This document shows positions 4,243-64,000 of a stretch of 64,000 nt of DNA, one piece after another. The DNA lies in NCBI RefSeq assembly GCF_964194155.1, contig NC_135901.1:26722001-26786000 (forward strand). Reading direction: 5' to 3'. Both the position numbers and the translations under genes were made by a program. Positions within the stretch are counted from its first letter, which is position 1, and every line of letters begins with the position of its first letter. The notes under the pieces are model-generated. The model had not been told where the DNA came from. It did not search any database and saw only the letters and a program-made list of their open reading frames with translations. This stretch comes from Cetorhinus maximus (Eukaryota).

Positions 4243-4319
4243 CTGCAAAATCAACAATTTACCCCTAAAATTGAGACAAGAAATGGAAAGGAGGGGAAAC
4301 ATTGATTCCCTCACAGATG

Positions 4320-13920: not shown

Positions 13921-13944
13921 TGCAAGGAGGCTTCAGGGTTAAAT

Positions 13945-17779: not shown

Positions 17780-20700
17780 TCTCTTTTTTTTATTCATTCA
17801 CGGGATGTGGGCTTTGCTGGCTGGGCCAGCATTTATTGCCCATCTCTAGTTGCCCTTGAGAAGGTGGTGAGCTGCCTTATTGAACTGCTGCAGCACATTT
17901 GGTGTAGATACACCCACAATTGCTGTTAGGAAGGGAGTCCCAGGATTTTGACCCAGTGACAATGAAGGAATGGTGATATGTTTCCAAGTCAGGGTGTGAG
18001 TGACTTGGAGGAGAACTTCCAGGTGGTGATGTTCCCATCTATCTGCTGCCTTTGTCTTTCTAGATGGTAGTGGTTGTGGGTTTTGAAGGTGCTGTCTAAG
18101 GAGCCAAGGTGAATTCCTGCAGTGCATCTTGTAGATGGTACACACTGCTGCTACTGTGCATCGGTGGTGGAGGGAGTGAATCATAGTCATAGAGTCATAC
18201 AGCACAGAAACAGGCACTTCAGCCCATCATGTCTGTGCTGGCCATCAAGCACCTATCTGTTTGTGGATGTGGTGCCAATCAAGCGGGCTGCTTTGTCCTG
18301 GATGGTGTCAAGCTTCTTGAGTGTTGTGGGAGCTGCATTCATCCAGGCAACTGGGGAGTATTCTAACACACTCTTGATTTGTGCCTTGTAGATGGTGGAC
18401 AGGCTTTGGGGAGTCAGGAGGTGAGTTACCCGTCGCACGATTCCCAGCCTCTGACCTGTTCTTGTAGCCACAGTAATTATATGACTGGTCCAGTTCAGTT
18501 TCTGGTCAATGGTAACCCCCAGGGTGTTGATAGTGGGGGAACTCAGTAATGGTAATGCCATTAAACATCAAGGGACGATGGTTAGATTCTCTCTTGTTGG
18601 ATATGGTCATTGCCTGACACTCGCATGGTGCGAATGTTACTTGCCACTTGTCAGCCCAAGCCTGGATATTGTCCAGGTCTTGCCACATTTGGACATGGAC
18701 TGCCTCAGTATCTGAGGAATCGTGAATGGTGCTGAACATTGTGCAATCATCAGCGAACATCCCCACTTCTGACCTTATGATAGAAGGAAGGTCATTGATG
18801 AAGCAGCTGAGGATGGTTGGGCCGAGGACGCTCCCCTGAGGAACTCCTACAGTGATGTTCTGGAGCTGAGGTGATTGTCCTCCAACAACAGCAACCATCT
18901 TCCTTTGTGCTAGGTATGACTCCAACTAGTGGAGAGTTTTCCCTCTGATTCCCATTGACTCCCATTTTGCGAGGGCTCCTTGATGCCACAATTGGTCAAA
19001 TGCGGCCTTGATGTCAAGGGCAGTCACTCCCACCTCACCTCAGGAGTTCAGCTCTTATGTCCATGTTTGAACCAAGATTGTAATGAGTTCAGTGGCCCTG
19101 GCAGAACCCAAACTGAGTGTCAGTGAGCAGGTTATTGCTAAGCAAGTGCTGCTTGATAGCACTGTTGATGACCCCTTCCATTACTTTACTGATGATCAAG
19201 AGTAGACTGATGGGGCGGTAATTGGCTGGGTTGGATTTGTCCTGCTTTTTGTGCACAGGACATACCTGCACAATTTTCCACATAGCCGGGTAGGTGCCAG
19301 TGCTGCAGCTGTACTGGAACAGCTTGGCTAGGGGCGCGGCAAGTTCTGGAGCGCAAGTCTTCAGTACTATTGCTGGAATATTGTCAGGGCCCATAGCCTT
19401 TGCAGTATCCAGTGCCTTCAGCCGTTGATATCTTGATATCACGTGGAGTGAATCGAATTGGCTGAAGACTGGCATCTGTGATGCTGGGGACCTCCGGAGG
19501 AGGCCGAGATGGATCATCCACTCGGCACTTCTGGCTGAAGATTGTTGCCTTACCTTTTGCACTGATATGCTGGGCGCCCCCATCATTGGGGATGGGGATA
19601 TCTGTGGAGCCTTCTCCTCCAGTGAGTTGTTTAATTGTCAACCAACATTCATGACTGGATGTGGCAGGACTACAGTGCTTAGATCTGATCCCTTGGTTGT
19701 GGGATCGCTTAGCTCTATCTATCACTTGCTGCTTATGCTGTTTGGTATGCAAGTAGTCCTGTGTTATAGCTTAACCAAATTGACACCTCATTTTTAGGTA
19801 TGCCTGGTGCTGCTCCTGGCATGCCCTCTTGCACTCTCATTGAAGCAAAGTTGATCCCCTGGCTTGATGGTATGGTAGAGTGGGGGATATGCTGGGCCAT
19901 GAGGTTACAGATTGTGGCTGAGTACAATTCTGCTGCTGCTGATGGCCCACAGCACCCCATGGATGCCCAATCTTGAGTTGCTGGATCTGTTCAAAATCTA
20001 TCCCATTTAGCACGGTGGTAGTGCCACACAACACGATGGAGGACATCCTCAATGTGAAGGCGGGACTTCATCCCCACAATGACTGTGCGGTGGTCACTCC
20101 TACGGATACTGTCATGGACAGATGCATCTGAGGCAGGCAGGTTGGTGAGGATGAGGTCAAGTATGTTTTCCCCTCTTGTTGGTTCCCTCACCACCTGCCG
20201 CAGACCCAGTCTAGCAGCTATGTCCTTTGGGACTTGGCCAGCTTGGTCAACAATGGCGCTAGCGAGCCACTCTTGGTGATGGACATTGAAGTCCCCCACC
20301 CCGAGTACTTTCTGCGCCCTTGCCAGCGTCAGTGCTTCCTCCAAGTGGTGTTCAACAATGAGGAGCACTGATTCATCAGCTGAGGGAGGGCGGTACGTGG
20401 TAATCAGCAGGAGGTTTCCTTGCCCATGTTTGACCTGATGCCATGAGACTTCATGGGGTCTGGAGTCGATGTTGAGGACTCCCAGGGCATCTCCCTCCCG
20501 ACTGTATACCACTGTGCCGCCACCTCTGCAGGACCTGTCCTGCCGGTGGGATAGAACACACCCAGAAATGGTGATGGTGGTGTCTGGGATATGATCTGTA
20601 AGGTATGATTCCATGAGGATGACTATGTCAGGCTGTGGCTTGACTAGTCTGTGAGACAGCTCTCCCAATTTTGGCACTAGCCCCCAGATGTTAGTGAGGA

Positions 20701-21098
20701 CGACTCTGCAGGGTCGACAGGGCTGAGTTTGCCGTAGTTGTTTCCAGTGCCTAGTTGATGCTGGGTGGTCCGTCCGGTTTCATTCCTTTTTTGAGACTTT
20801 TGTAGCGGTTTGACACAAGTGAGTAGTTTGTTAGGCCATTTCGGAGGGCATTTAAGAGTCAACCACATTGCTGTGGGTCTGGAGTTACATGTAGGCCAGA
20901 CCAGGTAAGGACGATTGATTTCCTTCCCTAAAGGACATTAGTGAGCCAAATGGGTTTTTACAACAATTGCGATGGTTTCATGGTCATCATTAGACTTTTA
21001 ATTACAGGTTTTATTGAATTCAGATTCCACCTCTGCCGTGGCGGGATTCGAACCCGGGTCACAGAACAGCGATTATATCACTACACCATCGCCTCCCC
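17780..21098 (-). mobile_element. Full-length CR1/L2-group non-LTR retrotransposon with tRNA-derived head and a single degenerate APE+RT ORF
   Basis: A box 21078-21088, B box GGTTCGAATCC 21044-21054; APE motifs (PDIVILMESYL, YRPPS, GDFNVH, LDLILTN, SDH); RT ([26 protein letters not shown]); GAAT/A-rich tail; small CR1 tail nested at ~18181-18258. Confidence 0.85.
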
Positions 21099-24880: not shown

Positions 24881-25548
24881 GATTCACAATAACAGGACTG
24901 AGAGCATTTAACCCTCAGGAAAGACTGGGGCTGCTTTTCTCTAGAAAAGAGAAGACTGAAGGGTGACCTGATGGGAGTCTTTTAAGATGATGAAGGGGTT
25001 CAATAATCCAATAAGGATTTCTTGAGAAACCTCTTTACCCAGCAAGTGGTGAGAATGTGGAACTCGCTACCACAGCGAGTGGTGGAGGTGAATAGCATGA
25101 ATACATTTAAGGGGAAGCTAGATACATACACGAGGGAGAAAGGAATAGAAGGATATGCTGATGGAGTGGGGGGAGATGAAGAGGGGTGGGTGGAGGCTCA
25201 TGTGGAGCATAAAAACTTACAGAGAGCAATTGAGCTGACTGGCCTGGCCCCTGTGCTGTAGACTCAATGGAACAGAGACAAATGTATTTATTTTAGGTTT
25301 ACCTGTAGTGGGAGGAAGAGCACTATTTACTATCCAGGATAAAATAAATGTCCTTCATCAGCTTTTGTGGATCATTTCAGTAGAAACGTGCGCTCCCAGG
25401 CTCAAAGTGCATCAGCCCACTGGAAGCAAAGCAGTGAGACCGGCCAGTCCAGCAGAAAGAAGCTCCCCGACCCTCCCATTTCACCAGCTGTCAGAACGGA
25501 CATGGTTCATTTCTGAATGTGCTTAACAGCAGCAACCAACCCCTGTAA

Positions 25549-26586
25549 TCACTTGTGAACTCGCTGGTGTCTCAGCAGGTTGGATGACTGAATGAATCCC
25601 TTCCCACACTCAGAGCAGGTGAACGGCCTCTCCCCAGTGTGAACTCGCCGGTGTGTCAGCAGGTTGAATGAATTACTGAATCCCTTCCCACAGTCGGAGC
25701 AGGTGAACGGTCTCTCCCCAGTGTGAACTCGCTGGTGTGACCACAAGGCGGACGAATCACTGAATCCCTTCCCACACGCAGAGCAGGTGAACGGCCTCTC
25801 CCCGGTGTGAATGCGTTGGTGTGTCTGAAGGCTGGATGACGTTCTAAAGCTCTTAGCGCAGCGAGAGCAGCTGAACGGTCTCTCCTCAGTGTGGATGCAC
25901 TGGTGGACCCTCAGATCCACAGCACTTTTGAAGCCACTCCCACAGTCGGAGCATTTAAAGGGTCTCTCGTTGGTGTGAGTGACATGGTGTCTCAGCAGAT
26001 GGGATGACTGAGCGAATCGCTTCCCACACACGGTGCAGGTGAACGGCCTCTCCCCGGTGTGAACACGCTGGTGTGCCAGCAGGTTGGACGACCGAGTGAA
26101 TCCCTTCCCACACTTGGGGCAAGTGAACGGCCGCTCCCCGGTGTGAACTCGCTGGTGGTTCCGCAGGGTGGATGAATCACTGAACCCCTTTCCGCACACA
26201 GAGCAGGTGAACGGCCTCTCCCCGGTGTGAACGCGCTGGTGTGTCAGCAGAGCGGATGAATGCGTGAACCCCTTCCCGCAGGCAGAGCAGGCGAACGGCC
26301 TCTCCCCAGTGTGACTGCATCGATGAATCTCCAGCTTAGTTGCGGATCTGAATCCCTTCCCGCACTCAGGGCAGGCGAACGGCCTCTCCCCAATGTGAAC
26401 CCGCTGGTGTGTAAATAAGTTGGATGAATTACTGAATTCCTTTCCGCACTCATAGCAAGTGAACGGCCTCTCCCCGGTGTGGCTGCGGCGGTGAATCTCC
26501 AGCTCCGACGGAGAGCGGGATTCCTTCCCACAGTCCCCGCATTTCCATGGTTTCTCCACAGTGCGGGTTTCCTTGTGACCCTCCAT
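25549..26586 (-). CDS. C2H2 zinc-finger protein C, 345 aa, 12 fingers
   Basis: ATG-initiated ORF MEGHKETRTVEKPWKC; last exon starts 26926, micro-exon 27737-27786, exon 1 donor 27859. Confidence 0.9.
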   Translation of the reverse strand: MEGHKETRTVEKPWKCGDCGKESRSPSELEIHRRSHTGERPFTCYECGKEFSNSSNLFTHQRVHIGERPFACPECGKGFRSATKLEIHRCSHTGERPFACSACGKGFTHSSALLTHQRVHTGERPFTCSVCGKGFSDSSTLRNHQRVHTGERPFTCPKCGKGFTRSSNLLAHQRVHTGERPFTCTVCGKRFAQSSHLLRHHVTHTNERPFKCSDCGSGFKSAVDLRVHQCIHTEERPFSCSRCAKSFRTSSSLQTHQRIHTGERPFTCSACGKGFSDSSALWSHQRVHTGERPFTCSDCGKGFSNSFNLLTHRRVHTGERPFTCSECGKGFIQSSNLLRHQRVHK

Positions 26587-27845
26587 GTTTGACGATCAGT
26601 TGAAGCCTCATCTACACATAAAACGCACATGCGATCTCGCCTCGCTGTAAATGGTACGGTGTTTTTTTCAGGTCATCTAACTGATTAAAGCTCATTCCAC
26701 AGTCAGTGCACTGGAACAATCTCACTCAGGTGTGTCTGTCTCGTGCTCCTTTTCCAGTCACACTGATGTTTAAAACCGTTTGAAGCAGACAGGACAGACA
26801 AACATTTCCCCTTCTAAGTTCATAGACCAATGGTATTAAGTTCCCAATGAATTGAGTGACTCTGTCAGGTCTCAACGTGACGTTTGGTTTGAGATTACTC
26901 TCGGCAAATCCTCCCCTCCTAATATCCTGTAAAAGGAGTTTACAAAAGTCATCACTGTCAGTACATAATTGAAATTCAGAAGAGACAATTTGAGTTTATA
27001 TTTCCCAAAAGTCATCCGAGACAGACTCCCTCCATTCTCACTCTGCCGTCCCTAAGATTCACCCTCCCAATTCTCCTGAAGGAGCAATTCATGCCAATTG
27101 ACAGATCCAAGGGCACTGCGTCTTGTCCTGGACGCAATATATTTGATATATATGCATGAAACAGGATGAAGAATGTGTGGTATGCAGTAGTGTATTTCTT
27201 AATTAGAGATACAGTGGGAGGGAGATGTGAGGAAGAAATTTATTTAGGCAGCGAGCGGTCTTAATCTGAAACTCACTGTCTGTGAGGATGGTGGAAGTAG
27301 GGACGGATGATTTAAAAATGAAAGTGAATGGGCACTCAAAGGACATAAACGTACACGGGAATGTAGAGAGGGAATGGGACTGGCTAGATTGCTCCACAGA
27401 GAGTTGACATGGACTTGAGTTAATGAATATGGTCTCCTTCTGTGCCATAATGACTCTATGACTGAAAATATATATGCATTACCACATTTAAAAAACTAGA
27501 AATAATAAATGCAATTTATTACAGAATCATAAATAATTTATATGGAAGTTGTATGATATAACAATACTACACAAATCTCGGTCCTATATTAATTTACAGT
27601 CCCCTTAAATGTCAGGCATCTCCTGGGGGAAACCACCCCTTTCATTGTGTACCACCCCTTTAATTTTAGCCAGACAAATAAATGTGTCAAACTGAGGTAG
27701 CAAAGGATGTCAATGTCTTTAATGACCCAGGGCAACCTTTCCAGAGTCTGCACCCTCCCTGGATTCAGTTCCTTTCCCTTCAGTTCCTGCAAGTCAACAA
27801 TTTCCCCCCAGAATGAGAAAAGAAATGGAAAGGGGGAGAAACGAA

Positions 27846-28552: not shown

Positions 28553-30445
28553 GCGGTGGTGGGAGTGAATGTTTGTGGATGGGGTGGCTGCTTTGCCCTG
28601 GACGGTTTCGAGCTTCTTGAGTGTTGTGGGAGATGCACTCATCCAGGCAAGTGGGGAGTATTCCATCACACTCCTGACTTCACAGAATCACACGGTGCAG
28701 AAGAGGCCCTTCGGCCCATCGAGTCTGCACTGACACGTGAGAAACACCTGACCTATCTACCTAATCCCATTTACCAGCACTTGGCCCATAGCCTTGAATG
28801 TTATGACGTGCCAAGTGCTCACCCAGGTACTTATTAAAGGATGTGAGGCAACCCGCCTCCACCACCCTCCCAGGCAGCGCATTCCAGACCGTCACCACCC
28901 TCTGGGTAAAAAAGTTTTTCCTCACATCCCCCCTAAACCTCCTGCCCCTCACCTTGAACTTATGTCCCCTTGTGACTGACCCTTCAACTAAGGGGAACAG
29001 CTGCTCCCTACCCACCCTGTCCATGCCCCTCATAATCTTGTACACCTCGATCAGGTCGCCCCCTCAGTCTTCTCCGCTCCAACGAAAACAACCCAAGTCT
29101 ATCCAACCTCTCTTCATAACTTCAATGTTTCATCCCAGGCAACATCCTGGTGAATCTCCTCTGCACCCCCTCCAATGCAATCACACCCTTCCTATAATGT
29201 GGCGACCAGAACTGCACACAGTACTCCAGCTGTGACCTCACCAAGGTTCTATACAACTCCAACATGATCTCGCTACTTTTGTAATCTATGCCTCGCTTGA
29301 TAAAGGCAAGCGTCCCATGTGCCTTTTTCACCACCCCACTTACATGCCCCTCCACCTTCAGAGATCTATGGACACACACGCCAAGGTCCCTTTGTTCCTC
29401 AGAACTTCTTAGTGTCATGCCGTTCATTGAATACTTTCTTGTCAAATTACTCCTTCCAAAGTGTATCACCTCACACTTTTCAGGGTTAAATTCCATCTGC
29501 CACTTATCTGCCCATTTGACCATCCTGTCTATATCTTCCTGTAGCCCAAGACACTCAACCTCACTATTAGCCACCTGGCCAATGTTTGTGTCATCCGCAA
29601 ACTTACTAATCCTACCTCCCACATAGTCATCTATGTCGTTTATATAAATGACGAATAATAGGGGACCGAGCACAGATCCCTGTGGTACGCCACTGGACAC
29701 TGGCTTCCAGTCACTAAAGCATCCTTCTGTCATTACCCTCTGTCTCCTACAACTAAGCCAATTTTGAATCCACCTTATCAAAGACTTGTGCCTTGTAGAT
29801 GGTGGACAGGCTTTGGGGAATCAGGAGGTGAGTTACTCACTGCAGGATTCCCAGCTTCTGACCTGCTCTTGTAGCCACAGTATTTATATGGCTGGTCCGG
29901 TTCAGTTTCTGGTCAATGGTAACCCCCAGGATGTTGATAATGGGGGATTCAGCAATGGTAAAGCCATTGAAGGCCAAAGGGCGATGGTTAGCTTCTCTCT
30001 TGTTGGAGATGGTCATTGCCTGACACTTGTGTGGCACTAATGTTACTTGCCACTTGTCAGCCCAAGCCTGGATATCGTCCAGGTCTTGCTGCATTTGGAC
30101 ATGGACTGCTTCAGCATCTGAGGAGTCGCGAATGGTGCTGAACATTGTGCAATCATCAGCAAACATCCCCACCTCTGACCTTATGATGGAAGGAAGGTCA
30201 TTGATGAAGCAGCTGAAGATGGTTGGGCCTAGGACACTACCCTGAGGAACTCCTGCACTGATGGTCCTGGAACTGAGATGACTGACCACCAACAACCATA
30301 ACCATCTTCCTGTGTGCTAGGTATGACCCCCACCAGCGGAGAGTTTCCCCCCCCTGATTCCCATTGACTCCAGTTTTGCTGGGGATCCTTGATGCCACAC
30401 TCAGTCAAATGCTGCCTTGATGTCAAGGGCGGTCACTCTCACCTT
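28553..30445 (-). mobile_element. Internal fragment of the tRNA-headed LINE family, interrupted by a CR1
   Basis: [34 protein letters not shown]; colinear with ~18160-19040. Confidence 0.85.
28681..29782 (-). mobile_element. Young 5'-truncated CR1
   Basis: TSD GACTT (28676-28680, 29783-29787); highly similar to 12840-13920. Confidence 0.9.
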
Positions 30446-30820: not shown

Positions 30821-31205
30821 TCATAGAGTTTTACAGGGTGGAAAGAGGCCCTTCAGCCTATCCTGTCCGCGTCGGTCATCAGGCCCCTGATCCCATTTAA
30901 TCCCATTTTCCAGCGCTTGGCCCATAGCCTTGTATGCTATGGTGCTTCAAGTGTTCATCTAAATCTTAACCGTTGAGGGTTCCTGCCTCTACCACCCTTT
31001 CGGGCAGTGAGTTCCAGATACTCCCCTGCTCCCCTCCCCACCCACCCTCTGGGTGAAAAAAACTTTTCCTCAAATCCCCTCTAAACCTCCTGCCCCTTAC
31101 CTTAAATTTATGCCCCCTGGTTATTGACCCCTCCACTTAGGGGAAAGGTTTCTTTCTATCGACCCTATCTATGCCCTTCATAATTTTGTACGCCTCAATC
31201 GGGTC
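30821..31205 (-). mobile_element. CR1 3' end inserted in the 5' UTR part of the ZNF-D last exon
   Basis: CR1 tail interrupting the consensus CACACCCGAGT/GAGAGTGT segment. Confidence 0.75.
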
Positions 31206-31372
31206 TGAGTGAGAGTGTCCCAGTGCACTGGCTGTGGAAGGAGCTTTAACCAGTTACACAGTTGAAAAATAATCACAGCACTCACAGCAGGGAGAGACCG
31301 TACACGTGTCCTTCCTTTGCACGAGGCTTCAACTGATCACCCAACCTGGAAAGACACAAGGGCAGCCGCACC

Positions 31373-32050
31373 ATGGAGAAACCGTGGAAATGTGGGGACT
31401 GTGGGAAAGGATTCAGATCCCCATCCCGGCTGGAAACCCACCGCCGCAGCCACACCGGGGAGAGGCCATTCGCCTGCTCCGTGTGTGGGAAGGGATTCAC
31501 TCAGCGAACGAGCCTGGTACGACACCGGATGGCTCACACCGGAGAGAGGCCATTCACCTGCTCGGTGTGCGGGAAGGGATTCACCACCTCGACCTGTCTG
31601 CTGGCGCACCGACACATTCACACCGGCGAGAGGCCGTTCACCTGCTCCGAGTGCGGGAAGGGATTCAACAAGTCATCCACCCTGCAGAACCACCGCGCCG
31701 TCCACACGGGGGAGAGGCCGTTCAGCTGCTCCACGTGTGGGAAGGGGTTCACTCAGGCGTCCAACCTGATGAGACACCAGCGGGTTCACACCGGGGAGAG
31801 GCCGTTCACCTGCTCCGAGTGTGGGAAAAGATTCAGTGACTCGTCGACCCTGTTGACACACCAGGGAATTCACACTGGGGAGAGGCCGTTCACCTGCACT
31901 GTGTGTGGGAAGGGATTCGCCGATTCAGCCACCCTGCGGAAACACCGGCGAGTTCACACCGGGGAGAGGCCGTTCACCTGCTCCATATGTGGCAAGAGAT
32001 TCAATCAGTCCTCCAACCTGCTGAGACACCAGCAAGTTCACACCGATTAA
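31373..32050 (+). CDS. C2H2 zinc-finger protein D, 225 aa, 8 fingers
   Basis: [10 protein letters not shown] start; last exon starts 30621; exon 1 donor 28535. Confidence 0.9.
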   Translation: MEKPWKCGDCGKGFRSPSRLETHRRSHTGERPFACSVCGKGFTQRTSLVRHRMAHTGERPFTCSVCGKGFTTSTCLLAHRHIHTGERPFTCSECGKGFNKSSTLQNHRAVHTGERPFSCSTCGKGFTQASNLMRHQRVHTGERPFTCSECGKRFSDSSTLLTHQGIHTGERPFTCTVCGKGFADSATLRKHRRVHTGERPFTCSICGKRFNQSSNLLRHQQVHTD

Positions 32051-32167: not shown

Positions 32168-32350
32168 GGGGAGGCGGTGGCATAGTGGTGTTGTGGCTGG
32201 ACTGGTAATCCAGAGGCCCGGGTTAATGCTTTGGGGACACAGGTTCAAAATCCCACCACAGCAGCTGGTGGAATTTAAATTCAATGAATAAACCTGGAAT
32301 TGAAACCACAAACCGTTGTCAACTGTTGTAAAAACACATCTGGTTCACTT
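32168..32350 (+). mobile_element. 5' part of a tRNA-derived SINE (same family as 51213-51574)
   Basis: A box TGGCATAGTGG, B-box-like GGTTCAAAATCCC, body GGTGGAATTTAAATTCAAT. Confidence 0.75.
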
Positions 32351-36095: not shown

Positions 36096-36750
36096 ATCTT
36101 GGGCTTCAGAAATAGAGGTACTGAGTACAAAAAGAGGGAAGTTACGCTGAACCTTTTATAAAGTTCCGGATAGAACCAAATACATTATTGTATCCAGATC
36201 TGGTCACCACACTTGAGGAAGGGTGTGAGGGTCCTTGAGAGGGTGGAGAGGAGATTTACCAGAATGGTTCCAGGGATGAGGGATTTTAACCGCGAGGTCA
36301 GGTTGGAGAAACTGGGGTTGTTCTCCATGGAGGAAAGGAGGTGGAGGGGAGATTTGATGGAGGTGTAGAAGATTCTGACAGGTTTAGATAAGGCGGACAG
36401 AGAAAAGCTGTTCCCATCAGCTGATGGTGCCAGGAAGAGGGGGTGGGGGGGTGCGGGAACAGAGCTTTCAGGTTTGGACAAGAGATACAGTGGGCTGGGG
36501 GGGGGAGCAAGTGAGGAGGAATATTTTTACATGGTGAGTGGGAATGATAACTCAGTGCCTGTGTGGGCGGTGGAAGCAGAGACAATGAACAATCTCAAAA
36601 TGAAATTGGATGGGCAGCTGAGGGAAATCAACTTACAGGGCTACAGGGAAAGAACGGGGCAATGGGATAGAGTGGCTATGCTCCAAAGAGCGCCGGCATG
36701 AGTTCGATGGGCCGAATAGCCTCTTTCTCTGCCCTACTGACTCCATGATC
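36096..36750 (+). mobile_element. Old CR1 3' fragment
   Basis: Degenerate ORF2 C-terminus and tail. Confidence 0.75.
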
Positions 36751-37714
36751 TAAAGAGAACAATTTCAGCTGCTCCAGTCTCTCCAACTAACTGAAGACCC
36801 TCATCTTGGTGCCGTTCTCGTAAATCTCCTCTGCACCCTCTCTGAGCACTTCACATCTTTCCCTACAGTGTGGGGCCCATATATAGGCTTCCATTCTGGA
36901 GGGATAGAATTGAAAAGCAGGGAGGTTATGTTCAACTTGTTTTGAACCATGGTCAGACTACACTGGGAGTACTGTCAACATTCGCGATCTCCATTTAGGA
37001 AAAGGAAATAGAGGCACTGGAGAAGGGGCAACAAAGATTCAGAAGTATAATACCAGAGCTGAGAGCATTTAACCCTCAGGAAAGGCTCGGGCTGCTTTTC
37101 TCTGGAAAAGAGAAGACTGAAGGGTGACCTGATGGAAGTCTTTAAGATGATGAAGGGGTTCAATAATCCAATAGGGATTTCATGAGAAACCTCTTTACCC
37201 AGCGAGTAGTGAGAATGTGGAACCCACTGCCACAGCGAATGGTTGAGGTGAATAGCATGAATACATTTAAGGGGAAGCTGAATACATACATGAGGGAGAC
37301 AGGAATAGAAGGATATGCTGATGGAGTGAGAGGAAGAGGGGTCAGTGGTGGCTCATGTGGAGCATAAATACTGACAGAGACCAACTGAGCCGACTGGCCT
37401 GGCCCCGTGCTGTAGACTCAATGGAACAGAGACAAATGTATTTATTTTAGATCTACCTATAGTGGTAGGAAAAGCATTATTTACTATCCAGTATAAAATA
37501 AATGTACTTCATCAGCTTTTGTGGATTATTTCAGTGGAAATGTGCACTCCCAGGCTCAAAGAGCATCAGTCCACTGGAAGCCATGTTGTGAGACCGGCCA
37601 GTCCATCAGAAGGAAACCTTCCGACCCTCCCACTTCACCAAGTGTCAGAATGAACATGGTTTAGTCCTGGATGTGACTAACAGCAACAATAACAGCAGAA
37701 TCCAACCCCTGCAG

Positions 37715-38557
37715 TCACTTGTGAACTCGCTGGTGTCTCAACAGGTTGGATAACCGGGCGAATCCCTTCCCACACACGGAGCAGGTGAACGGTCTCTCCC
37801 CAGTGTGAAGTCGCTGATGTGTCAGCAGGTTGGATGACTGAGTGAATCCCTTCCCACACACGGAGCAGGTAAACGGCCTTTCTCCAGTGTGAACTCGCTG
37901 ATGTGTCAGCAGGGTGAATGAATCACTGAATCCCTTCCCGCACTCCGAGCAGGTGAACGGCCTCTCCCCAGAGTGAACTTGCTGGTGTCTCAGCAGGTTG
38001 GATGAGTGACTGAATCCCTTCCCACAAACGGAGCAGGTGAACGGCCTCACCTCAGAGTGAACTTGCTGGTGCGTCACCAGGTTGGATGAGTGAGTGAATC
38101 CCTTCCCACACACAGAGCAGTTAAATGGCCTCTCCCCAGTATGAACTCGCTGGTGTGAAAGCAGGTTAGATGACTGAGCGAATCCTTTCCCACACATGGA
38201 GCAGGTGAATGGTTTCTCCCCACTGTGAACTCTCTCATGTGTCAGCAGGGTGGATGAATCGCAGAATCCTTTCCCACATTCGGAGCAGGTGAATGGTCTC
38301 TCCCCGGTGTGAACTCGCTGGTGTATCAGCAGGTGGGATAATTGCGTGAACCCCTTCCCACACTCAGAGCAGGTGAATGGTCTCTCCCCAGTGTGAACCC
38401 GTTGGTGTGTCTGCAGGGTGGCTAACCGAATGAATCCCTTCCCACACTCAGGGCAAGTGAACGGCCTCTCCCCAGTGTGAATGCGTCGATGAGTTTCCAG
38501 CACAGACGGGGAACGGAATCCCTTCTCACAGTCCCCACATTTCCACGGTTTCTCCAT
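37715..38557 (-). CDS. C2H2 zinc-finger protein E, 280 aa, 10 fingers
   Basis: [10 protein letters not shown] start, 10x28 aa; last exon starts 38916; micro-exon 39733-39782; exon 1 donor 39851. Confidence 0.9.
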
Positions 38558-39854
38558 GGTGCGGGAATCCAGGTGTGTCTCCAGAGTCGAGGATCAGTTG
38601 TCACTTCGTCCACACACACGTGTACGGTCTCTCTCCGGTGTGAATGATGTGATGTTTCTTCAGGCTTTGTAACTGGGTAAAGCTCTCTCCACAGTCAGTG
38701 TACTCGAAGACTCTCACTCAGGTGTGTGCGTCTCGATGCTTTTCCTGTCATCCTCATGTTTAAAACCTTCGAATCAGACAGAACAGACCAACCGACATTT
38801 CTGCTTGTAGATTCAAGGAATGATGATATTCAGGTCCCGTTGAATCAATGACTATCAGATCTAGACGTGACGTTTAGCTTGAGATTTCTGTCTACAAATC
38901 CTCCCCTCCTAATATCCTGTAAAAGGAATTTACAAAAGTCAACACTCTCAGCACAGGAATGCAATTCAAACCAGACGATTCTAGTTTCTACACAACATTC
39001 TTTCCCTCTTGTTACCCAAAATCTCTAAATCTCTGTCCCATACATGCTCCCTCCATTCTCACACTGCTGTACCTAATATACACCCTCCCAGTTCTCCGGA
39101 AGGTGATAATTCACACTGATCAACAGATCCATGCTCACTGGACTAAAAATGTCTGTAATCAGTGGTACCTGGGCGATGTATGGAGTAGGATTATTAATAA
39201 GCCAGTGAGTGGTCATGTCATGGAACTTGTGGCCTACAAGGATGGTGGAAGCAGAGGTGACCAATGGTTTCAAAATGAAATTGGATGGGCACTTGAAGGA
39301 AATAAACTTGCAGGAGTACGCGGATATAGGGGGAGAATGGGACTGACTGGATTGGTGTACGGAGGGTTGGCATGGACTCAAGTTGCTGAATGGGCTGCTT
39401 CTGTGCTGCCAAAACTTTTGACCAGAAATATATAACACAGCACCAATACAGTACTATATTATCAGATGAGAAATAATAATAAATGTACTTTATTGCAGGC
39501 CCATAAATAATATAACTAACATGTACCATACAACAACACTACACATATCTTTGTCTTATATTAATTTACTGTCCCCTTAAATGCCACCCATCTCCTGGGG
39601 AAACCACCCCTTTAATTGTGAACATTAGGAAAGAGACCATCCTTTTAGACAAATAAATGTGTCAATCTGAGGGAGCAAAGGATGTCAATGTCTTTAAGGG
39701 AGAGAGAGAGAGAGAGGGATACCTGAGCCAACCTTTCCAGAGTCTGCACCCTCCCTGGATTCACTTCCTCTCCTTTCAGTTCCTGCAAGTCAACAATTTA
39801 CCCCCAGAATGAGAAAAGAAATGGAAAGGGGGGAAGCATTGATTTCCTCACAGA

Positions 39855-40470
39855 TGTTGCCCAGAGGAGGAAGTTTCAGTCCGAAGCTCATTGTCCAACT
39901 TCCGCATTGTGACGTCCACAGTGGAACCCTGCCTGAATCAGCCAATAGGAATCACTCCGCTCCGCGGTGACGTCCTCGGGTTCCAGTCCGCAGGCCAGGC
40001 CCGGCGCGCGGACACGGGCGCCCCGCCCCCACCCATTGTTTCCCCCCTCTCCCCTCCCCTCCCTCTCCTCGAGCCAGGGTTTCCAGGCAACCGGCTGACG
40101 ACTCCGGCCAGCGCGAGAAGCCCCGCTCGGCGAACTCTCCCCCTCCGCCCCCCCCCCCCCCCCCCACCCTCTCACTCTCTCGGGAGGCGGCTGGCTGCTC
40201 CAAAAAATAGATCGAGAGCGACCGCTGGCGGCAGTCGCCACTGCGCCTGCTCCGGGGTCAGCTCGGGCGAGGGGGGTCGGGGAGGGGTCAGCAGCGCTTT
40301 CTGCGCCTGCGCACTGGACTGCCAGCTGGGGAGAGGGGAAGAGACTTGACAAAATGTCTTCCCTTCCCCATTTTCCTCCAAGCCATACAGTTTGATTTTA
40401 AACAGCCCAACATTTGCTTTTAGCTTCACACAGACACTAAAACTTCCTCTTCTGTCCAACATCTGTGAGT
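39855..40470. promoter_or_regulatory. CpG-rich bidirectional promoter of the ZNF-E/ZNF-F pair
   Basis: Paralogous to 4320-4790 (ETS, CRE-like, CCAAT, NRF1-like TGCGCCTGCGCA); exon 1 donor GTGAGT at 40465. Confidence 0.8.
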
Positions 40471-41742
40471 AAAAGATTTTCTTTCCCTTCCCCCCTGGGA
40501 AATACAGCGAGTTGTGGGAATCTGTAACTGGAATTAGAGCCAAATATGCTGAGGGGGGAAATGCTGGTGATTTTGTGGAGCCTGTTTTTATTGTATAAAC
40601 TGTTTCAAGTGAAAATTATCCTGTCTATTCAAATCCTGTTTGTCTGTTAATGCAGGCTTCATTGATGTTGATTTTAGTTTGATTTTTACAGTAAAAGGTT
40701 TTTTTTAAAAAAAGTGAAACCTTGCCCTTCGGTTTATTTGGGGTTGTCTGGGAATTTGTTTAAGGTTATCGGTCTCCATGGGGATCGAAACAACAGAGAT
40801 ATGTCTAGTGGTGCATATTAGATACATTATTCACGGTTCTGTAATAAAGTTCACTTATTATTTCCAGTCTTTTAACATGGTGCTGTAGCTACGTTATATA
40901 GTTCCAATCGTAGAGTCATTACGACACAGAAGGAGTCCGTTCGGCAACTCAAGTCCATGCCAATTCTCTGTTGAGCAATCGAGTCAGTCAGTCCCATTCC
41001 CCTGCAAATTTATTACCTTCATTTATTTTATATGTATATATATATAAAATAAGCACTAAGCATGGATCTTTTGATCAGCATGAATTGGCACCTTCAGAAG
41101 AATTGGGAGGGTGTACATTAGGTACAGCGGAGTGAGAATGGAGAGAGTAAAAACAGTAAAATGCTGGAAAAACCCAGCAGATCTGGCAGCATAGGACTCT
41201 TCATATGACTTCTTCAGTGCTCAGAATGGAGGGAGAGTTTGTGGGATGAGGATTTACAGCTTTTAGGGAATGAGAGAGGAAAGAATGATCCATAGAAACT
41301 AGAATTGTCTGTTCTGAATTTCTGTCCTGTGCTGACAGTGATGACTTTTGTACACTCCTTTTACAGGATGTTAGAAGGGGAGGATTTGCAGACAGAAATC
41401 TCTATCCAAACATCACGTCAAGATCTGGGAGAGTCACTCGATTCATCGGGATTTGAATATCAGTGGCCTTTGAATCTAGAAGGAGAAATGTTTATCTCTC
41501 TGTCTGCTTCAAAATATTTTAAACATCAGCGTGGCTGGAAAAGCACCGAGACACACACACACACACACACACACACCTGAGTGAGTGTGTTCCAGGGAAC
41601 TGATTGTGGAAAGAGCTTTAACCAGTTACACAGCCTGACAAAACATCACACCATTCAGAGCAGGGAGAAACTATATATGTGTTATGTGTGTGGATGAGGC
41701 TTCAACTGATTGTCAAACCTGGAGACACAAGGACCCTACGCC

Positions 41743-42753
41743 ATGGAGAAACAGTGGAAATGTGGGGACTGCGGGAAGGGATTTCGATTCCCGTCTGAGC
41801 TGGAAACTCATCAACGCGTTCACACTGGGGAGAGGCCATTCACCTGCTCAATGTGTGGGAAGGGATTCAGTGGTTCATGGCAGCTGCATGCACACCAGCG
41901 AGTCCACACTTTGGAGAGGCCGTTCCCCTGCTCTGTGTGTGGAAAGGGATTCAGTGATTCATCCAACCTGCTGAGACACCAGCGAGTTCACACCGGGGAG
42001 AGGCCGTTCACCTGCTCTGAGTGTGGGAAAGGATTCACTCAGTTATCCACCCTGCAGACGCATCTGCGAATTCACACTGTGGAGAGGCCGTTCAGCTGCT
42101 CGGAGTGTGGGAAGGGTTTCACTCAGTCATCCAACCTGCTGCTGCACCAGCGCATTCACACTGGAGTGAGGCCTTTCACCTGCTCCGAGTGTGGGAAGGG
42201 ATTCACTCGATTATCCAGCCTGCAGAGACACCAGCGTGTTCACACCGGGGAGAGGCCGTTCACCTGTATGGTGTGTGGGAAGCGATTCACTCAGTCATCC
42301 ACCCTGCTAAAACACCATGTTACTCACACCAACGAGAGACCCTTTAAATGCTCCGACTGTGGGAGTGGCTTCAAAAGTGCTGCGGAACTGAGGGTCCACC
42401 AGCGCATCCACACTGAGGAGAGACCATTCAGCTGCTCTCTCTGCGCTAAGAGCTTTAGAACGTCATCCAGCCTTCGGATACACCAACGCATTCACACCGG
42501 GGAGAGGCCGTTCACCTGCTCTGTGTGTGGAAAGGGATTCATTGATTCATCCACCCTGCTGACACACCAGCGAGTTCACACCGGGGAGAGGCCGTTCACC
42601 TGCTCCGTGTGTGGAAAGGGATTCACTAATTCATTCAACTTGTTGACACACCAGCGAGTTCACACCGGGGAGAGGCCGTTCACCTGCTCCGTGTGTGGGA
42701 AGGGATTCATCAATTCTTCGCACCTGCTGAGACACCAGCGAGTTCACAAGTGA
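41743..42753 (+). CDS. C2H2 zinc-finger protein F, 336 aa, 12 fingers
   Basis: GCC ATG GAG AAA CAG TGG at 41743; 12x28 aa; last exon starts 41367. Confidence 0.9.
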
Positions 42754-42997
42754 CTGCACGAGTTGTGTTCTGCTGTTATTGCTGCTGGAAAACACATTCA
42801 GGACTGAACCATGTTCGTTCTGACATCCTTTGCTCCCTCAGATTGACACGTTTATTTGTCTGGCTGAAATGATGGCCTCTTTCCTAGTGGTCACAATTAA
42901 AGGGGTGGTTTCCCCAGGAGATGGCTGACGTTTAAGGGGACAGTAAATGTAGGACAGAGATGTGTCTAGTGTTCTTATAAGGTACATATTAGATATA

Positions 42998-43657
42998 TTT
43001 TTTATTCATTTATGGGATGTGGGCATCACTGGCAAGGCCAGCATTTATTCCCCATCCCTAATTGCCCCTTGAGAAGGTGGTGGGTGAGCCACTGCATTGA
43101 ACTGCTGCAGTCCATGTGGTGTAGGTATGCCCACCGTGCTGTTAGGGAAGGAGTTCCAGGGTTTTTACCCAGCGATAGTGAAGGAACGACCGATATATTT
43201 CCAAGTCAGGATGGTGAGTGACTTAGAGGGGAACTTTCAGGTGGTGGTGTTCCCAAGTGTCTGCTGCCCTTGTCCTTCTAGGTGGTAGTGGCCGTAGGTT
43301 TGGAAGGTGCTGTCGAAGGAGCCTTGGTCAATTCCTGCAGTGCATCTTGTAGATAGAACACACTGCTGCCACTGTGGTTTGGTGGTGGAGGGAGTGAATT
43401 TTTGTGGATGGGGTGCCGATCAAGTGGGGGCTGCTTTGTCCTGGACGGTGTCGAGCTTCTTGAGTGTTGTGGGAGCTGCACTCATCCAGGCATATGGGGA
43501 ATATTCCATCGCACTCCTGACTTGTGCCTTGTAGATGGTGGACAGGCTTTGGGGAGTCAGGAGGTGAGTTACTCGTCACAGGATTCCCAGCCTCTGACCT
43601 GCTCTTGTAGCCACAGTATTTATATGACTGGTCCAGTTCCGGGTCTGGTCAATGGTA
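42998..43657 (-). mobile_element. 5'-truncated copy of the tRNA-headed LINE family
   Basis: Colinear with 17785-18515 including the GGGCAATTAGGGATGGG..ATAAATGCTGGCC tail. Confidence 0.85.
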
Positions 43658-45515: not shown

Positions 45516-45796
45516 CTATATATATGTACTGTGTGTAGATGAGGTTTGAACTGATCATCGAACCTGGAGAGACAACCGTGCACCATTGAAAAACCAGTGG
45601 AAATGTGGGGACTGTGAGAAGGGATTCTGGTCCCTTTTTGAGCTGGAAACTCATCAATGCAGTCACACCGGAGGAGGGGAGAGGCCGTTCACCTGCTCCG
45701 AGTGTGGGAAGGGATTCGGTGATGTATCCGACCTCCAGGAGCACCAGTGAATTCACACTGTGGAAAGGCCGTTCACCTGCTTCGACTATGGGAAAG

Positions 45797-46304: not shown

Positions 46305-46393
46305 TGGAAAGGATTCAGATCCCGGTCTAAGCCGAGATTCACCAACACAGTCGCACTGGGGAGAGGCCGTTCACTTGCTCTGAGTGTGGGAAG

Positions 46394-46752
46394 CGGTTGG
46401 ATAGTGCTTTTTTCACCTAACTAGTATTCCAGAGACCCAAGATAATCCTCTGGGGACCCAGGTTCGAACCCCACCACGGCAGATGGTGAAATTTGAATCC
46501 AATAAAAAAATCTGGAATTAAAAGTCCAATGATGACCATGAAACCATTGCCGATTGTTGTGAAAACCCATCTGTTTCACTAATGTCCCCTTTAGGGAAGG
46601 AAATCTGCCATCCCTACCTGGTATGGCCTACATGTGACACCAGACCCACAGCAATGTGGTTGACTCTTAAATACCCTCTGGACAAGGGCAATTAGGGGTG
46701 GGCAATAAATGCTGGCCTAGCCAATGGTGCCCACATGAATGAATAAAATAAT
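46394..46752 (+). mobile_element. tRNA-derived SINE
   Basis: B box GGTTCGAACCC; 9-bp TSD TGTGGGAAG (46385-46393, 46753-46761). Confidence 0.9.
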
Positions 46753-46959
46753 TGTGGGAAGGGATTCAGTCAGTAATCTACCCTGCTGACACACAGGCAA
46801 CTTCACACTAGGGAGAGGCTGTTCACCTGCTCTCAGTGTGGGAAGGGGTTCAGGCTCCGTTGAAGACATCACAATGACTGAGAGGGGCGTTCCCAGCACA
46901 CACCGTGACCCATTGGTTCCAGAAGGAAAATACTGCAGATTGGACGACAGCTCAGCGCG

Positions 46960-49777: not shown

Positions 49778-50740
49778 ACTCCAGTGGAGTTCCCCAGAGA
49801 CCCTTGCTTTTCCTGATACATATTAGCAATCTAGATCTTGGTATGCATGGGACAATTTCAAAGTTTGCGGATGATACAAAACTTGGAAGCACTGTAAACT
49901 GTGAAGGGGACTGTGCAGAACTTCAAAAGGACACAGACAAGTTGTTGGAGTGGGCAGGTCGATGGCAGGTGAAGTTCAATGCAGTGAAGTGATTTCATTT
50001 TGGCAGGAAGAACATGTAGAGACAATATGAAATAAGGGGTACAACTCTAAAGGGTTCAGGAGCAGAGGGACCTGGGTGTATATATGCATAAGTCATTTAA
50101 GTGGCAGGACAGGTGGAGCGAGCAGTTAATAAAGCATACAGTATCTTGGGCTTTATTCATAGGGGCAGAGAGTACAAGAGCAAGGAGGTTATGCTGATTT
50201 TATATAAGGCACTAGTTAGACCTCAGCTGGAGTATTGTGTACAGTTCTGGGAGCCACACTTTTGGAAGGATGAGAACGCATTGGAGAGAGTGCAGAAGAG
50301 GTTTACAAGAATGGTTCCAGGGTTGAGAAACTTCAGTTATGAAGATAGATTGGAGAAGTTGGGACTGTTCTTGGAGAGGAGATTTGATAGAAGTGTTCAA
50401 AATCATGAGGGAGCTGGACAGAGTAGAGAGGGAGAAACTTTTCCCGTTTGTAAAAGGATTGAGAATGAGAGGGCACAGATTTAAAGTGATTTGCAAAAGA
50501 AGCAAATGTGATGTGAGAAAAAAGCGTTTTCACACAGCGAGTGGTTGGGGTCTGGAATGCACTTGCCTGGAAGTGTGGCGGAGGCAGGTTCAATCGGGGC
50601 ATTCAAGGAGGCATTAGAATGTGCAGGGGTATGGGGAAAAGGCAGGAGAATGGCACTGAGTCATAACGCTCATTTGGAGAGCTGGTGCCAATGTGATGGG
50701 CTGAACGGCCTCCTTCTGCAATGTAACAATTGTGTGATTG
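49778..50740 (+). mobile_element. CR1 3' fragment
   Basis: ISKFADDTKLG, LVRPQLEYCVQFW. Confidence 0.88.
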
Positions 50741-51212: not shown

Positions 51213-51574
51213 GGCGAGGGGATGGCGTAGTGGTATTGTCACTGGACTAGTAATCCAGAGACCCAGGGTAATGCTCTGGGGACCCGGGTTTGAATCCCAC
51301 CACGGCAGATGGTGGAATTTGAATTCAATAAAGATCTGGAATTAAAAGTCTCACGGCGACCATTGTCGATTGTTGTAAAAACCCATCTGGTTCACTAATG
51401 CCCTTTAGGGAAGGAAATCTGCTGTCCTTACCCGGTCTGGGTCTGGTCTACATGTGACTCCAGACCCACAGCAATGTGGTTGACTCTTAAATTCTCTCTA
51501 AACAAGGGCAAATAGGGATGGGCAATAAATGCTGGCCTAGCCAACGACGCCCACATTTCATGAATGAATAAACA
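51213..51574 (+). mobile_element. Full-length tRNA-derived SINE
   Basis: A box TGGCGTAGTGG, B box GGTTTGAATCC, LINE-shared tail, TSD TAGAT. Confidence 0.9.
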
Positions 51575-52930: not shown

Positions 52931-55900
52931 TGTTATGGCAGGCGGGTGGTAAATGCCAAGCTGCCCAAATCCCAGAGGGAAACTTGAAGCAGCTGCCACA
53001 ACTATTTGCAATTTGTATTTATTTCGAGGTGCGGGCTTTGAGTTCAGTAAAAAGAACACCACCAAGTCTTATAGGTTTCTTAAAAGACTAAATTAAACCT
53101 TTATTACATAAAAAAATGATTTTAAGCACTTAAATAGGTTTACAAATCGCTACTATAATAACTTCTAGCTCCCCTGATTAATCTAACTCCCAATTACACC
53201 TCCGTTAAGACAACAATAAAAACAATAAAATGTATTTTAAAAGACCCAGGCAAAGTAATAGATACCCTAAACAGTCAAACTCAAAGTGAGTTTTCTTAAC
53301 TTCAGTTCTTGCAGACAGCGGTTTGGACACATAGGCTGGAGGCTTTTCACAGTTGTTAGATCTTAGAATTCCTGCCTTTACACACAGCCTTCTCTCCTTT
53401 ATCCATATTTTTTCCATTAAATGCAAATTCCCATTGTTTCACTATGTCTTTGGACTTTACCTCTCTAATAATAAAAATCTATCATAGTGCCAATTTTACC
53501 AGTAATCTTTGGGAAAAATAAACACACTGTTTCTTAACTTCTCCTGGCTAAGTGAAACATTTCACCCCTCTTTTCAATTCAAGCTAGTCTGGTTTATTTT
53601 AAAATGCAAATGTTTCCTCTACACCTCACATTGTAAAACTTCACCCATGTTTACCCACTTAACATTTCAAACCTAGCTTATTTTCTGATTCATCAAAGTC
53701 TTCAGACCAGCTGCCTTTAATTCAATTAAGTCTCCCCCCGCCACACACACACAGACCCATAGACACAGACCCCACTATTACTTTACACCCCATTATTACT
53801 TTACAATAAATTCCAATAACATTATGAACATTATTATATCTTCCTGACATACCCCTCCTTATTAAAAAAAAACATTATAATTTAAAAAGATGGCTTTATT
53901 TTCTGAACTTCCGTGATAAATACCCTATCGGTTTTTCAGTTCCAGTGTCATCTTCTTGTAACAGTACAGCCCCAATGCCTATATCGCTTACATCAATGGA
54001 CAACTTGATTGGCGTAATTGGGTACTGCCAAAACTGGTGTCGTAATTAATACAGTTTTCAAATTGTCAAATGCTTTCTGACAGTCCTGTGTCCATTGAAA
54101 CTTCTTGTTCTTTTTTAATAGTTCAGTCAACGGAGCAACCACACGGCTAAAATTTGGTTCAAATTTCCAGTAAAACCCACTCCTGCCCAGAAATCTCAAA
54201 ACTTCTCGTTTTGTTGTAGGCACGGGGAAATCCAAGATAGCCTTGACTTTCACATCTCTCAGAGCCACCTTACCATGTCCAATGGTATGGCCTAGGTACG
54301 TAACCTGCACTTTTGCAAATTCACTTTTAGCCAAGTTCATCACCAAATTAGCTTCTTGTAATCGAGCAAATAATTCTTCCAGGTGGTGTAACTGCTCCTC
54401 CCACATCTGACTGAAAACTATCCAGTCATCAATATAAACAGCACAATTGCTCAGACCTGCAATTACTTTGTGTGTTAGTCTTTGAGATGTTGCAGGTGCA
54501 TTTTTCATACCAAATGGCATGACATTAATCTGATAAAGTCCATCTGGCATCACAAAAGCCGATATCTCTTTTGCGCTCTCCGATAATGGTACTTGTACTT
54601 GCCAATATCCTTTTAGCAAGTCAATCTTTGTGATAAATTTTGATTGTCCCACTTTCTCAATGCAATCTTCCAGCCGTGGTATACGATATGAATCTGCTTG
54701 GGTCACTGCATTCACCAGTTGATAGTCCACACAGTCTTTCTGTTCCATCTGGCTTCAGTACCAGCACAATAGGTGAACTCCAGTTACTGCAACTAGACTC
54801 TGTTATATCATTTTGAAGCATGAATTCAATTTCTTTCTGTACTTGTGATAACTTTACCGGATTTAATCTATAAGGATGTTGCCTTATCGAAGATGAAACT
54901 TCTACAGACACATCATGTACAGCTAAATTTGGCCTCCCCAACTTATTTCCACAAATAGCTTTGTGTGACTGCAATAGCTTCTCAAAATCGCTTTGACACT
55001 CGTCTGGAAGGTATTACATTTAAATTGTCAAGTACCCCCTCGTTATCCAATTTGATTAGAGGAAAATCAGCCTCAGAATCCTGCATTTCAACCTCTTTCC
55101 CATTACCTACCACCACGAGCACCTCCTTTTGGTCCTCTCCTCTGTCAAAGTACTTTTTAAGCACATTTACATGACGCACCCTCTGCTTCTTTCTTCTGTC
55201 TGGAGTATTTATTAAATAATTTACTTCACTCAGTTTCTTTTCAATCCTGTAAAGCCCACTAAACCTTGCCTTTAACGAGTCACCCAGTACTGGTAACAGA
55301 ACTAACACTTTCTCCCCACCAACAAAACTACGAGCTGTAGCTTCCCCGTCTTCCTTCACTTTCATCACTTGCTGTGATATCTTTGAATGTTCCGTAACCA
55401 ACTCACATGCTCTGTCCAATCTGTCTCTGAAATTTGGTACATAATCCAGGAGAGCAGTTTCTGAATCTTGACCCACCAATTTCTCAAGAATCAATTTCCG
55501 TGGTACTCTCAACGCATGACCATAAACTAATTCTAAAAGACTAAAACCAGTCAATGCATTAGGAGCACCTTCCAAACCCACGACCACTACCACCTAGAAG
55601 GACAAGAGCAGCAGATAGATGAATAGATGGGCACCGCCTGGAAGTTCCCCTCCAAGACAATCACCATCCTGACTTGGAAATATATCGCCGTTCCTTCACT
55701 GTCACTGGGTCAAAATCCTGGAACTCCCTTCCTAACAGCACTGTGGGTGTACCTACATCACATGCAGACTACAGCGGTTCAAGAAGGCAGCTCACAACCA
55801 CCTTCTCAAGGGCAACTAGGGATGGGCAATAAATGCTGGCCCAGCCAGCAAAGCCCACATCCCGTGGATGAATGATAATAATTTAAAAATCCCTAATAGC

Positions 55901-62850: not shown

Positions 62851-64000
62851 ATATTATATTCGTGTTAATTACCCATTTAATGGCCTTAATAGGCCTATCA
62901 ATCGTCGGCGGGCGGACAGCCGACTCCGTCACGCGCCCGCCGAACGAAATGTCGCGCGTCATTTTACACTCCGGCGTGTCAGGCTTGCCCCTGCAGGCCG
63001 AGTGTAAAATCCTGGCCCCTGTAATCACGTTTCCGTCATGACAATAAGATCATACCCACTTACCTCTACTTGTGCCTTTAAATCGTCTACCTTGTTGCGA
63101 ATGCTGTGTGCATTCAGGTAGAGCGCCCTTAACTTAGCCTTTTTGACATTATTCCGCATTCTAGGTTTAGGTGATGCTTGCTCTCCTTCCACCCGCCTTC
63201 TAATTTCACTTGCCACTTTTCCACTGCCCGTTACCAGCTTTGCTTCCTTCCAATCTGAGCAACCCCTTAGGTTACCCAACCTCTGATCAGCTAGTTTAAA
63301 CCCTCCCCGACAGCACCAGCAAATCCCCCTGTGAGGATATTTAGTCCCTGTCCTGCTAAGGTGTAACCCTTCCAGCTTGTACCGGTCCCACCTGCCCCAG
63401 AACCAGTCCCAATGCCTCAGAAATCCAATGCCGTCCCGTCTACACCCAATTCTCCAGCCGTGTGTTCAATCGCTCAACCCTCCTATTCCTTTGATCACTG
63501 GCACGTGGCACTGGGAGTAATCCTGAGGTCACAGGGCAACTCGGGTTGGGCCAGTGAAGCCCACGTCCTGTGAATGAATAATAAAAAAAAAGCAGCTCTT
63601 GAGGTCCTGCTTTTTCATTTCCTCCCAAACTCCCTAAAATCTGCTTTCAGGGTCTCATCCCTCTTCCTACCTATGTCATTGATACCAATGTGGACCACGA
63701 CCTCTCGCTGTTCACCTTCCTCCACAAGGATGCCCTGAAGCCGATCTGTGATGTCCTTGACCCTGGCACCAGGAAGACAACATACCACCCTGAAATTAGA
63801 AGGTGGGTGGAATGAGAGCAAGCATCACCTAAACCTAGAATACGGAATTATGTCAAAAAGGCTAAGTTAGATAAAAAAGGGTAAGAGAGAGGAAAAAGTG
63901 GACATTGGGCCGCTGGAAAATGACGCTGGAGAAGTAGTAGTGGGGAACAAAGAAATGCCGGAGGAACTGAATAGGTTCTTTGCGTCAGTCTTCACGGTGG

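Follow-up and report, generated by a model that had tools for sequence, protein, structure and literature searches.

The tRNA-headed SINEs in the 64-kb window, the whole stretch of DNA that was analysed, are composed of the first ~290 nt and the last ~70 nt of a LINE of the Zenon type that itself begins with the same tRNA-derived head. We put the probability at roughly 0.7 that such SINEs arose by internal deletion of the headed LINE, and that at least two SINE families were produced in this way from successive LINE subfamilies. We conclude that the family present in the window came from the LINE, possibly by way of a third junction type described below. SINEs are generally explained as fusions of a small-RNA head with a LINE tail; where their bodies come from is an open question. 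Here head, body and tail would derive from one LINE in one step, more than once, and dated parent-offspring pairs within one genome would make the birth of a SINE traceable.

Two SINE copies lie on the plus strand of the window, copy A at 51213–51574 (A box 51223–51233, B box 51287–51297, junction 51502/51503) and copy B at 46394–46752 (junction 46682/46683), the latter inserted in an array of C2H2 zinc-finger repeats. The corresponding LINE, decayed and full-length, occupies 17783–21098 on the minus strand. From 5′ to 3′ it comprises a tRNA-derived head (21032–21098; A box 21088–21078, B box 21054–21044), a body or 5′ leader common to LINE and SINEs (20844–21031), a hairpin whose loop has 7 nt, with a GCT codon of the main frame after it (20804–20843; a candidate tRNA mimic, mutated in this copy), the remnant of a single ORF (17846–20803, stop codon 17848–17846), and a tail common to LINE and SINEs that holds the last 10 nt of the ORF, the 3′ UTR and an A-run (17783–17858). 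The ORF remnant is interrupted by stops and frameshifts and encodes a basic N-terminus, an AP endonuclease and a reverse transcriptase (Pfam Exo_endo_phos_2, E 8e-10; RVT_1, E 5.5e-11). Near the 3′ end, a foreign retroposon tail of about 77 nt (18182–18257, minus strand) is private to this copy; it corresponds to a gap at query positions 2863–2940 in nearly all other copies and resembles other repeats of the window.

By BLASTN, copy A matched the window LINE in two blocks, with 83% identity over 225 nt (21060–20844, E 7e-63) and 87% over 70 nt (17858–17789, E 2e-20). The equivalent blocks for copy B had 86% identity over 224 nt and 80% over 74 nt. These blocks agree with the initial annotation, which had both SINEs following the long element from its head to about 20845 and then jumping to its last ~65 nt, and the similarity of the body held in formal alignment. 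The junction, which had been described as the same in both copies, was indeed identical by alignment. It leaves the element 3 nt beyond the end of the body and re-enters it 10 nt before the end of the ORF, from where the 3′ UTR follows. The first 37 nt of the head align as a separate block because 30 nt of the head, anticodon arm included, are missing from the window LINE (reference columns 38–67). Compared with the majority sequence of young LINE heads and bodies, copy A was 95% identical (281 columns), and it grouped with young LINEs in the tree described below. Target-site duplications had been proposed for both SINEs. For copy B this was borne out by a 9-nt duplication identical at 9/9 positions (left 46385–46393, overlapping sequence that resembles the G-rich 5′ end of the element itself; right 46753–46761), while the candidate of copy A is weak, with 6/7 nt. 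Within the family, four of 16 SINEs examined and one of seven head-to-tail LINEs had duplications of at least 6 nt; being mostly too short or eroded, target-site duplications were set aside as proof of insertion as a unit.

Judged by its genomic copies, the head-bearing LINE is the normal form of its family. The 4-Gb genome was searched with the ORF sequence only, and the 30 best loci of 3800 candidates, the window's own locus among them, were examined. The body lay directly upstream in 19 of the 30, and the head start was reached in nine; the other 11 were cut at differing points, interrupted or partly matched, with no alternative 5′ end in common. Headed long copies might in principle be sporadic chimeras, made by LINEs inserting into, or template-switching onto, a SINE, and 5′-truncated LINE copies that carry no head do exist. 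This explanation is hardly credible given one fixed leader-to-ORF junction in 131 instances, the lack of any alternative 5′ end and the same structure at the start of published consensuses from five species. The window copy, too, is one insertion in the reverse transcriptase region of an unrelated LINE, and its host flanks align end to end on other copies of that host (49844–49957 and 49963–50125), which indicates a single insertion site.

Seven head-to-tail LINE copies measured 3190–3356 nt. The majority sequence of 27 copies, those long enough to align among 40 fetched, contains a single 975-codon frame free of stops, which encodes endonuclease and reverse transcriptase and begins about 300 nt from the 5′ end. 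The only upstream frame has 35 codons, there is no ORF1, and the element ends in an A-rich tail. Among 150 scored matches, in which intact young copies were sought, the longest open frame was 751 aa. The family made up ~9% of an evenly spaced 600-kb genome sample, a share that makes it a major force in these genomes; short-junction SINEs numbered seven copies in 600 kb of evenly spaced sample.

Based on motif matches and a by-eye match over the first 400 nt of published consensuses, we assign the long element to the elasmobranch Zenon-1 LINE family. In the supplement of PMC13343379 there are Zenon consensuses for five elasmobranch species, one of them a ray, seven in all (CarCar, HypSab, RhiTyp and ScyCan Zenon-1; SquAca Zenon-1 to -3), and each starts with the same tRNA head and body within the first 400 nt, the portion compared by eye. 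Over this portion the window family is nearly identical to CarCar_Zenon-1, and the elements described there are likewise 3.2–3.3 kb long, with a single ORF, no ORF1 and an A-tail. In the main text of that source, neither "tRNA" nor "polymerase III" occurs, and a partner SINE is not described. A whale shark preprint names a CR1-Zenon-like LINE without detail (10.1101/443036), and Zenon is described as the tail partner of bivalve SINEs (PMC11481361). The literature covered, to which subscription journals and Repbase or Dfam entries do not belong, held no account of a tRNA head, Pol III transcription or a partner SINE for shark Zenon. The nearest database proteins to the LINE ORF were 38–40% identical, apart from a Heptranchias protein with 68% identity over 34% of the query. 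The latter, P0036, is a predicted aldo-keto reductase model that holds this piece of LINE protein, probably as a gene-model artefact or through exonisation.

The genome contains at least two SINE families with different junctions. A set of body ends was collected from 1.6 Mb of fetched sequence, which was mostly chosen by search, so that the counts are not proportional to the genome. The 267 body ends comprised 131 LINEs, 42 short-junction SINEs, 48 long-junction SINEs, 29 other joins of head and tail, and 17 unclassified cases. The long junction lies 23 nt further along than the short one, which cuts just before the hairpin; the long junction cuts just after it, and long-junction SINEs keep the hairpin without the GCT codon. 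In majority sequence, short SINEs differ from the LINE at 4 of 290 columns and long SINEs at about 14. At 12 diagnostic head sites, chosen from the same data, 34 of 35 scorable short SINEs were of the young type and 36 of 40 long SINEs of the old type, and the LINEs (n = 97) comprised 84 young, 6 intermediate and 7 old heads.

A head/body tree was built from 63 of 140 eligible rows, five of the 63 being old LINEs, over 277 columns and with CpG columns removed. Eighteen short SINEs, including both window copies, and 18 young LINEs formed one branch (support 100/96), with long-junction SINEs and old LINEs apart from it; most forks in the tree were not resolved. Old LINEs are thinly sampled, as a search that started from an old LINE copy yielded mainly young ones. 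Forcing all SINEs into a single clade cost 53.8 lnL units, a narrow, borderline rejection (AU p 0.037). In the tails, short and long SINEs differ at 3 of 6 sites, and there the short SINEs carry the LINE alleles. The LINE copies form a graded series in head and tail into which the short SINE fits, its tail matching a slightly older LINE tail than that of the window copy. None of the 14 scorable young-head LINE copies had the exact tail haplotype of the short SINE, the nearest differing at one site.

The third junction was found in three copies, all with young heads (9:0, 10:0 and 5:0). Further joins keep ORF sequence that is absent from both SINE families, with 3′ breakpoints for example at 2857, 2892, 2899, 2906, 2910 and 2914, compared with 2927–2928 in the two families, and 11 of the 131 LINE leaders were followed by a deletion of more than 300 nt within 1.5 kb. 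Such one-off joins may be DNA deletions after insertion or SINE-LINE chimeras. Several short SINEs have additional small deletions at the start of the tail (L085:37 and L085:2173, minus strand; L019:154; L117:953; L154; L345:989), and two near-identical copies with such deletions flank one locus in opposite orientation. More divergent head-and-tail elements, joined at yet other points, lie at loci L301, L304, L311, L328 and L307 and may represent an earlier stratum of SINEs.

The grouping of SINEs and LINEs in the tree, the third junction and the many one-off deletions are best explained by repeated deletion from the LINE. Very probably, leader would be joined to tail by a deletion or by a template jump, either while reverse transcription proceeds or afterwards, and the resulting unit, already equipped with a promoter and a tail recognised by the reverse transcriptase, would be amplified in trans by the Zenon protein. 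The reverse order would start from an ancient tRNA SINE with head, body and Zenon tail, whose 5′ part was captured by a Zenon LINE while the SINE lineage continued, the heads being kept alike by gene conversion or template switching. The greater mean divergence of long-junction SINEs (0.099 vs 0.072 and 0.084), their private tail alleles, two of which are nearly absent from LINE tails, and the nearly equal 3′ breakpoint of both SINE families (2927/2928), which would also result if one SINE family descended from the other, speak for such an order. Outgroup Zenons without a head imply, too, that a capture happened at some time. Yet in its head as well as its tail the short SINE sides with the LINE rather than with the long SINE, SINE monophyly was rejected (at the p value given above), the third junction has young heads, and no SINE with the same head and another body or tail was present among 208 head matches or among the body-end instances. 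A SINE-first origin is thus improbable and may apply to the oldest SINE family only, for which either order is conceivable. The initial annotation had posed an either/or, with the SINE arising by deletion or the LINE capturing half of a SINE. For the window SINEs its first alternative is favoured; as a dichotomy it was a false choice, as the LINE must have gained its head earlier.

The head of the family folds as a cloverleaf with an AGT anticodon and a long variable arm (ARAGORN, relaxed threshold), and it is nearest to tRNA-Thr (z 8.2) among the five host isotypes compared from fetched loci. An Rfam search with the SINE gave at best E 1, to tRNA-Sec; neither the SINE nor the leader had a match near the gathering score. 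The consensuses of coelacanth Zenon and two hagfish Zenons in PMC13343379 do not start with the head in the first 400 nt compared, and the LINE must therefore have gained it earlier than the SINEs were formed. An ancestral Zenon would probably have acquired it once, before the shark/ray split, and the donor may have been a tRNA or an extinct SINE. Among 80 related loci from metagenomes, no BLASTN match to head or body and no A and B box pair upstream was found; most are 24–40% identical, many have no 5′ end and their clade membership is presumed, so they form a weak outgroup. As to the body, three of its motifs were missing from the hagfish SINE supplement, and UCON3 was rejected as a source, the body bearing no resemblance to the printed UCON3 domain.

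Non-autonomous elements made of the two ends of a LINE have precedents. The Persaeus SIDE of Lepidoptera combines the two ends, 5′ and 3′, of a Zenon LINE and had several independent origins; as described in PMC6740152, it has no tRNA homology or Pol III promoter, whereas the shark parent LINE carries a tRNA head. R2 SIDEs of Drosophila are described as products of likewise repeated internal deletions that keep both functional ends (PMC3414825). The same source portrays the R2 RNA as cut by a ribozyme from a Pol I rRNA co-transcript, without a tRNA head, unlike the shark LINE, and the R2 parent as probably translated via an IRES. In bipartite SINEs of RTE and Vingi LINEs, body and tail also both come from a LINE (PMC5786205, PMC7245038), but there the RNA head was added after the deletion, and the accounts given concern these two clades only (PMC5786205); in sharks the head already sits on the autonomous Zenon LINE. 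RTE-1_DAn and relatives are LINE consensuses with tRNA-like sequence, but of the RTE clade (PMC5786205, the only source found for RTE-1_DAn and tRNA). The SINEs HE1, SacSINE1 and CmiSINE of cartilaginous fishes likewise have tRNA heads; compared by description, their listed partners are HER1, CR1-4_DR-like or L2-2_CM, with sharing confined to the tail (PMC5499810, PMC3747384). The statement in the initial annotation that SINE/LINE pairs typically share only the 3′ tail omits bipartite SINEs and SIDEs, in which both ends are shared, as these sources describe them (PMC5786205, PMC6740152). The unusual point is that the tRNA head itself is common to SINE and LINE.

The window SINEs are SIDE-type derivatives and formally also tRNA SINEs. 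Like SIDEs, they contain nothing but the two ends of one autonomous LINE, and they and the long-junction SINEs are each amplified as a family of their own with a fixed junction, within 2 nt of which lie 39 of the 42 short copies and 42 of the 48 long ones. They depart from SIDEs in the sense in which Persaeus was defined, free of a small-RNA head and Pol III promoter, in having A and B boxes and a cloverleaf. As in tRNA SINEs (SINE2), the head is tRNA-derived with both boxes and the 3′ tail is common to a partner LINE; bipartite RTE/Vingi SINEs differ in that here the partner is Zenon and already bears the head. Since the parent LINE carries the tRNA head, its deletion product is formally a SINE. 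The LINE is already catalogued and deletion derivatives of Zenon are already known in moths; the tRNA-headed parent is the difference.

Pol III stops at runs of at least four T on the non-template strand. The window LINE copy has one TTTT run in 3.3 kb, compared with 16 A-runs. Reverse transcriptase segments of the family had 15 TTTT runs in 54.3 kb, or 0.13 of expectation, older relatives had 0.33, and other reverse transcriptase families of the same genome had 84 in 21.3 kb, or 1.27 of expectation (some loci in this comparison overlap). The depletion is specific to strand and base, with an observed/expected ratio of 0.24 for T vs 0.84–1.19 for A, C and G, and copies with old heads were also low in T-runs (0.64 per kb). 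In the majority ORF, which is T-poor, codon shuffling predicted 12.8 TTT runs and four were found (0 of 2000 shuffles as low), and for TTTT it predicted 2.1 against none found (P 0.078), which is not significant alone. The majority ORF also has no TTA among its 88 Leu codons. Low Phe content was discarded as a sign of T avoidance, being clade-wide (mean 3.2% and minimum 2.0% in 108 homologues vs 1.85% here). Three of the 80 metagenome relatives had 0–0.7 TTTT per kb, with no head found and no sure 5′ end, and the rest 2–18 per kb; L193, L214 and L265, on metagenome contigs, are distant LINE relatives (28–37% identity) with a nearly TTTT-free sense strand.

Given the T-run depletion and the intact boxes A and B with which the element begins, transcription by Pol III is likely. 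We lean towards the view that Pol III, directed by the boxes of the head, would synthesise the complete 3.3-kb RNA. Contigs of four sequencing runs, presumably of RNA, cover the element and carry no information on start, strand or polymerase. Alternatively, the SINEs could be deletion derivatives of a LINE transcribed by Pol II, from the body or by host read-through, the head being merely carried along by the LINE and active in the SINE alone. For this, one may point to moth Zenon derivatives, which amplify without a Pol III promoter according to PMC6740152, to the P value of the TTTT test taken alone, to T-poor composition and low Phe that are partly clade traits, and to an upstream AUG frame that has been kept. 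We regard it as rather unlikely, as every LINE subfamily and the seven published consensuses, as printed over the compared part, keep the boxes precisely at the 5′ end, and the shortage of TTT and TTTT concerns one strand and one base and is not seen in the genome's other LINEs. If the head does drive the LINE, a vertebrate would here have a naturally occurring Pol III transcript of 3 kb that codes for protein and must be translated without a cap, and the usual division of labour between polymerases would have an exception that can be tested. Extended further, and at somewhat less than even odds, Pol III transcription may date back to the shark/ray ancestor, with T-runs purged over 3.3 kb and translation without cap or AUG via a tRNA-mimicking leader. 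The LINE would then be a standing SINE factory, in which successive subfamilies each bud off SINEs and any deletion joining leader to tail yields a complete SINE.

A Pol III RNA is uncapped, and the ORF has no early AUG (none in frame for 290 codons, the first Met being codon 291), which together suggest non-AUG, cap-free translation. With slightly less than an even chance, the ORF would start without AUG just after the hairpin at the body end. By the general tRNA consensus, the loop of this hairpin reads like an Ala anticodon loop, and an in-frame GCT follows, an arrangement that may correspond to the anticodon-like loop and paired codon ahead of the non-AUG frame in a dicistrovirus-type (IGR) IRES. 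Of 79 copies, 55 have 19 nt between hairpin and ORF and nine have 16 nt, and the frame is kept in 66; by eye it is also kept in four of six published consensuses in the compared part, both Squalus ones breaking it. The candidate tRNA-mimic hairpin folds no better than shuffled sequence (z 0.18); for a 146-nt stretch of the body, taken from copy L003, the fold has z −2.0. No IRES family, the dicistrovirus type included, was found in the leader by Rfam (E up to 10). A conserved out-of-frame AUG opens the 35-codon upstream frame (20783–20676, minus strand), which overlaps the endonuclease start in the +1 frame; its spacing to the endonuclease is 92 nt in 63 of 79 copies, and this frame could be the real start.

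The window holds further pieces of the same family. A head-only fragment with old-type alleles, its 3′ part lost, lies at 32168–32349 on the plus strand, and more 5′-truncated or internal Zenon LINE fragments lie at 29783–30444, 28586–28680, 42998–43657, 55564–55881 and 63550–63587. Two LINE segments of 1.09 kb (12838–13924 and 28696–29782) are 93% identical in opposite orientation, far closer to each other than other copies in the window are. About eight paralogous arrays of 84-nt repeats that read as C2H2 zinc fingers, 70–85% alike and on both strands, lie at 2375–4780, 5260–7740, 24888–27001, 31200–32045, 36329–40377, 41226–42825, 45519–45794 and 46340–46853, the last being the array that copy B interrupts.
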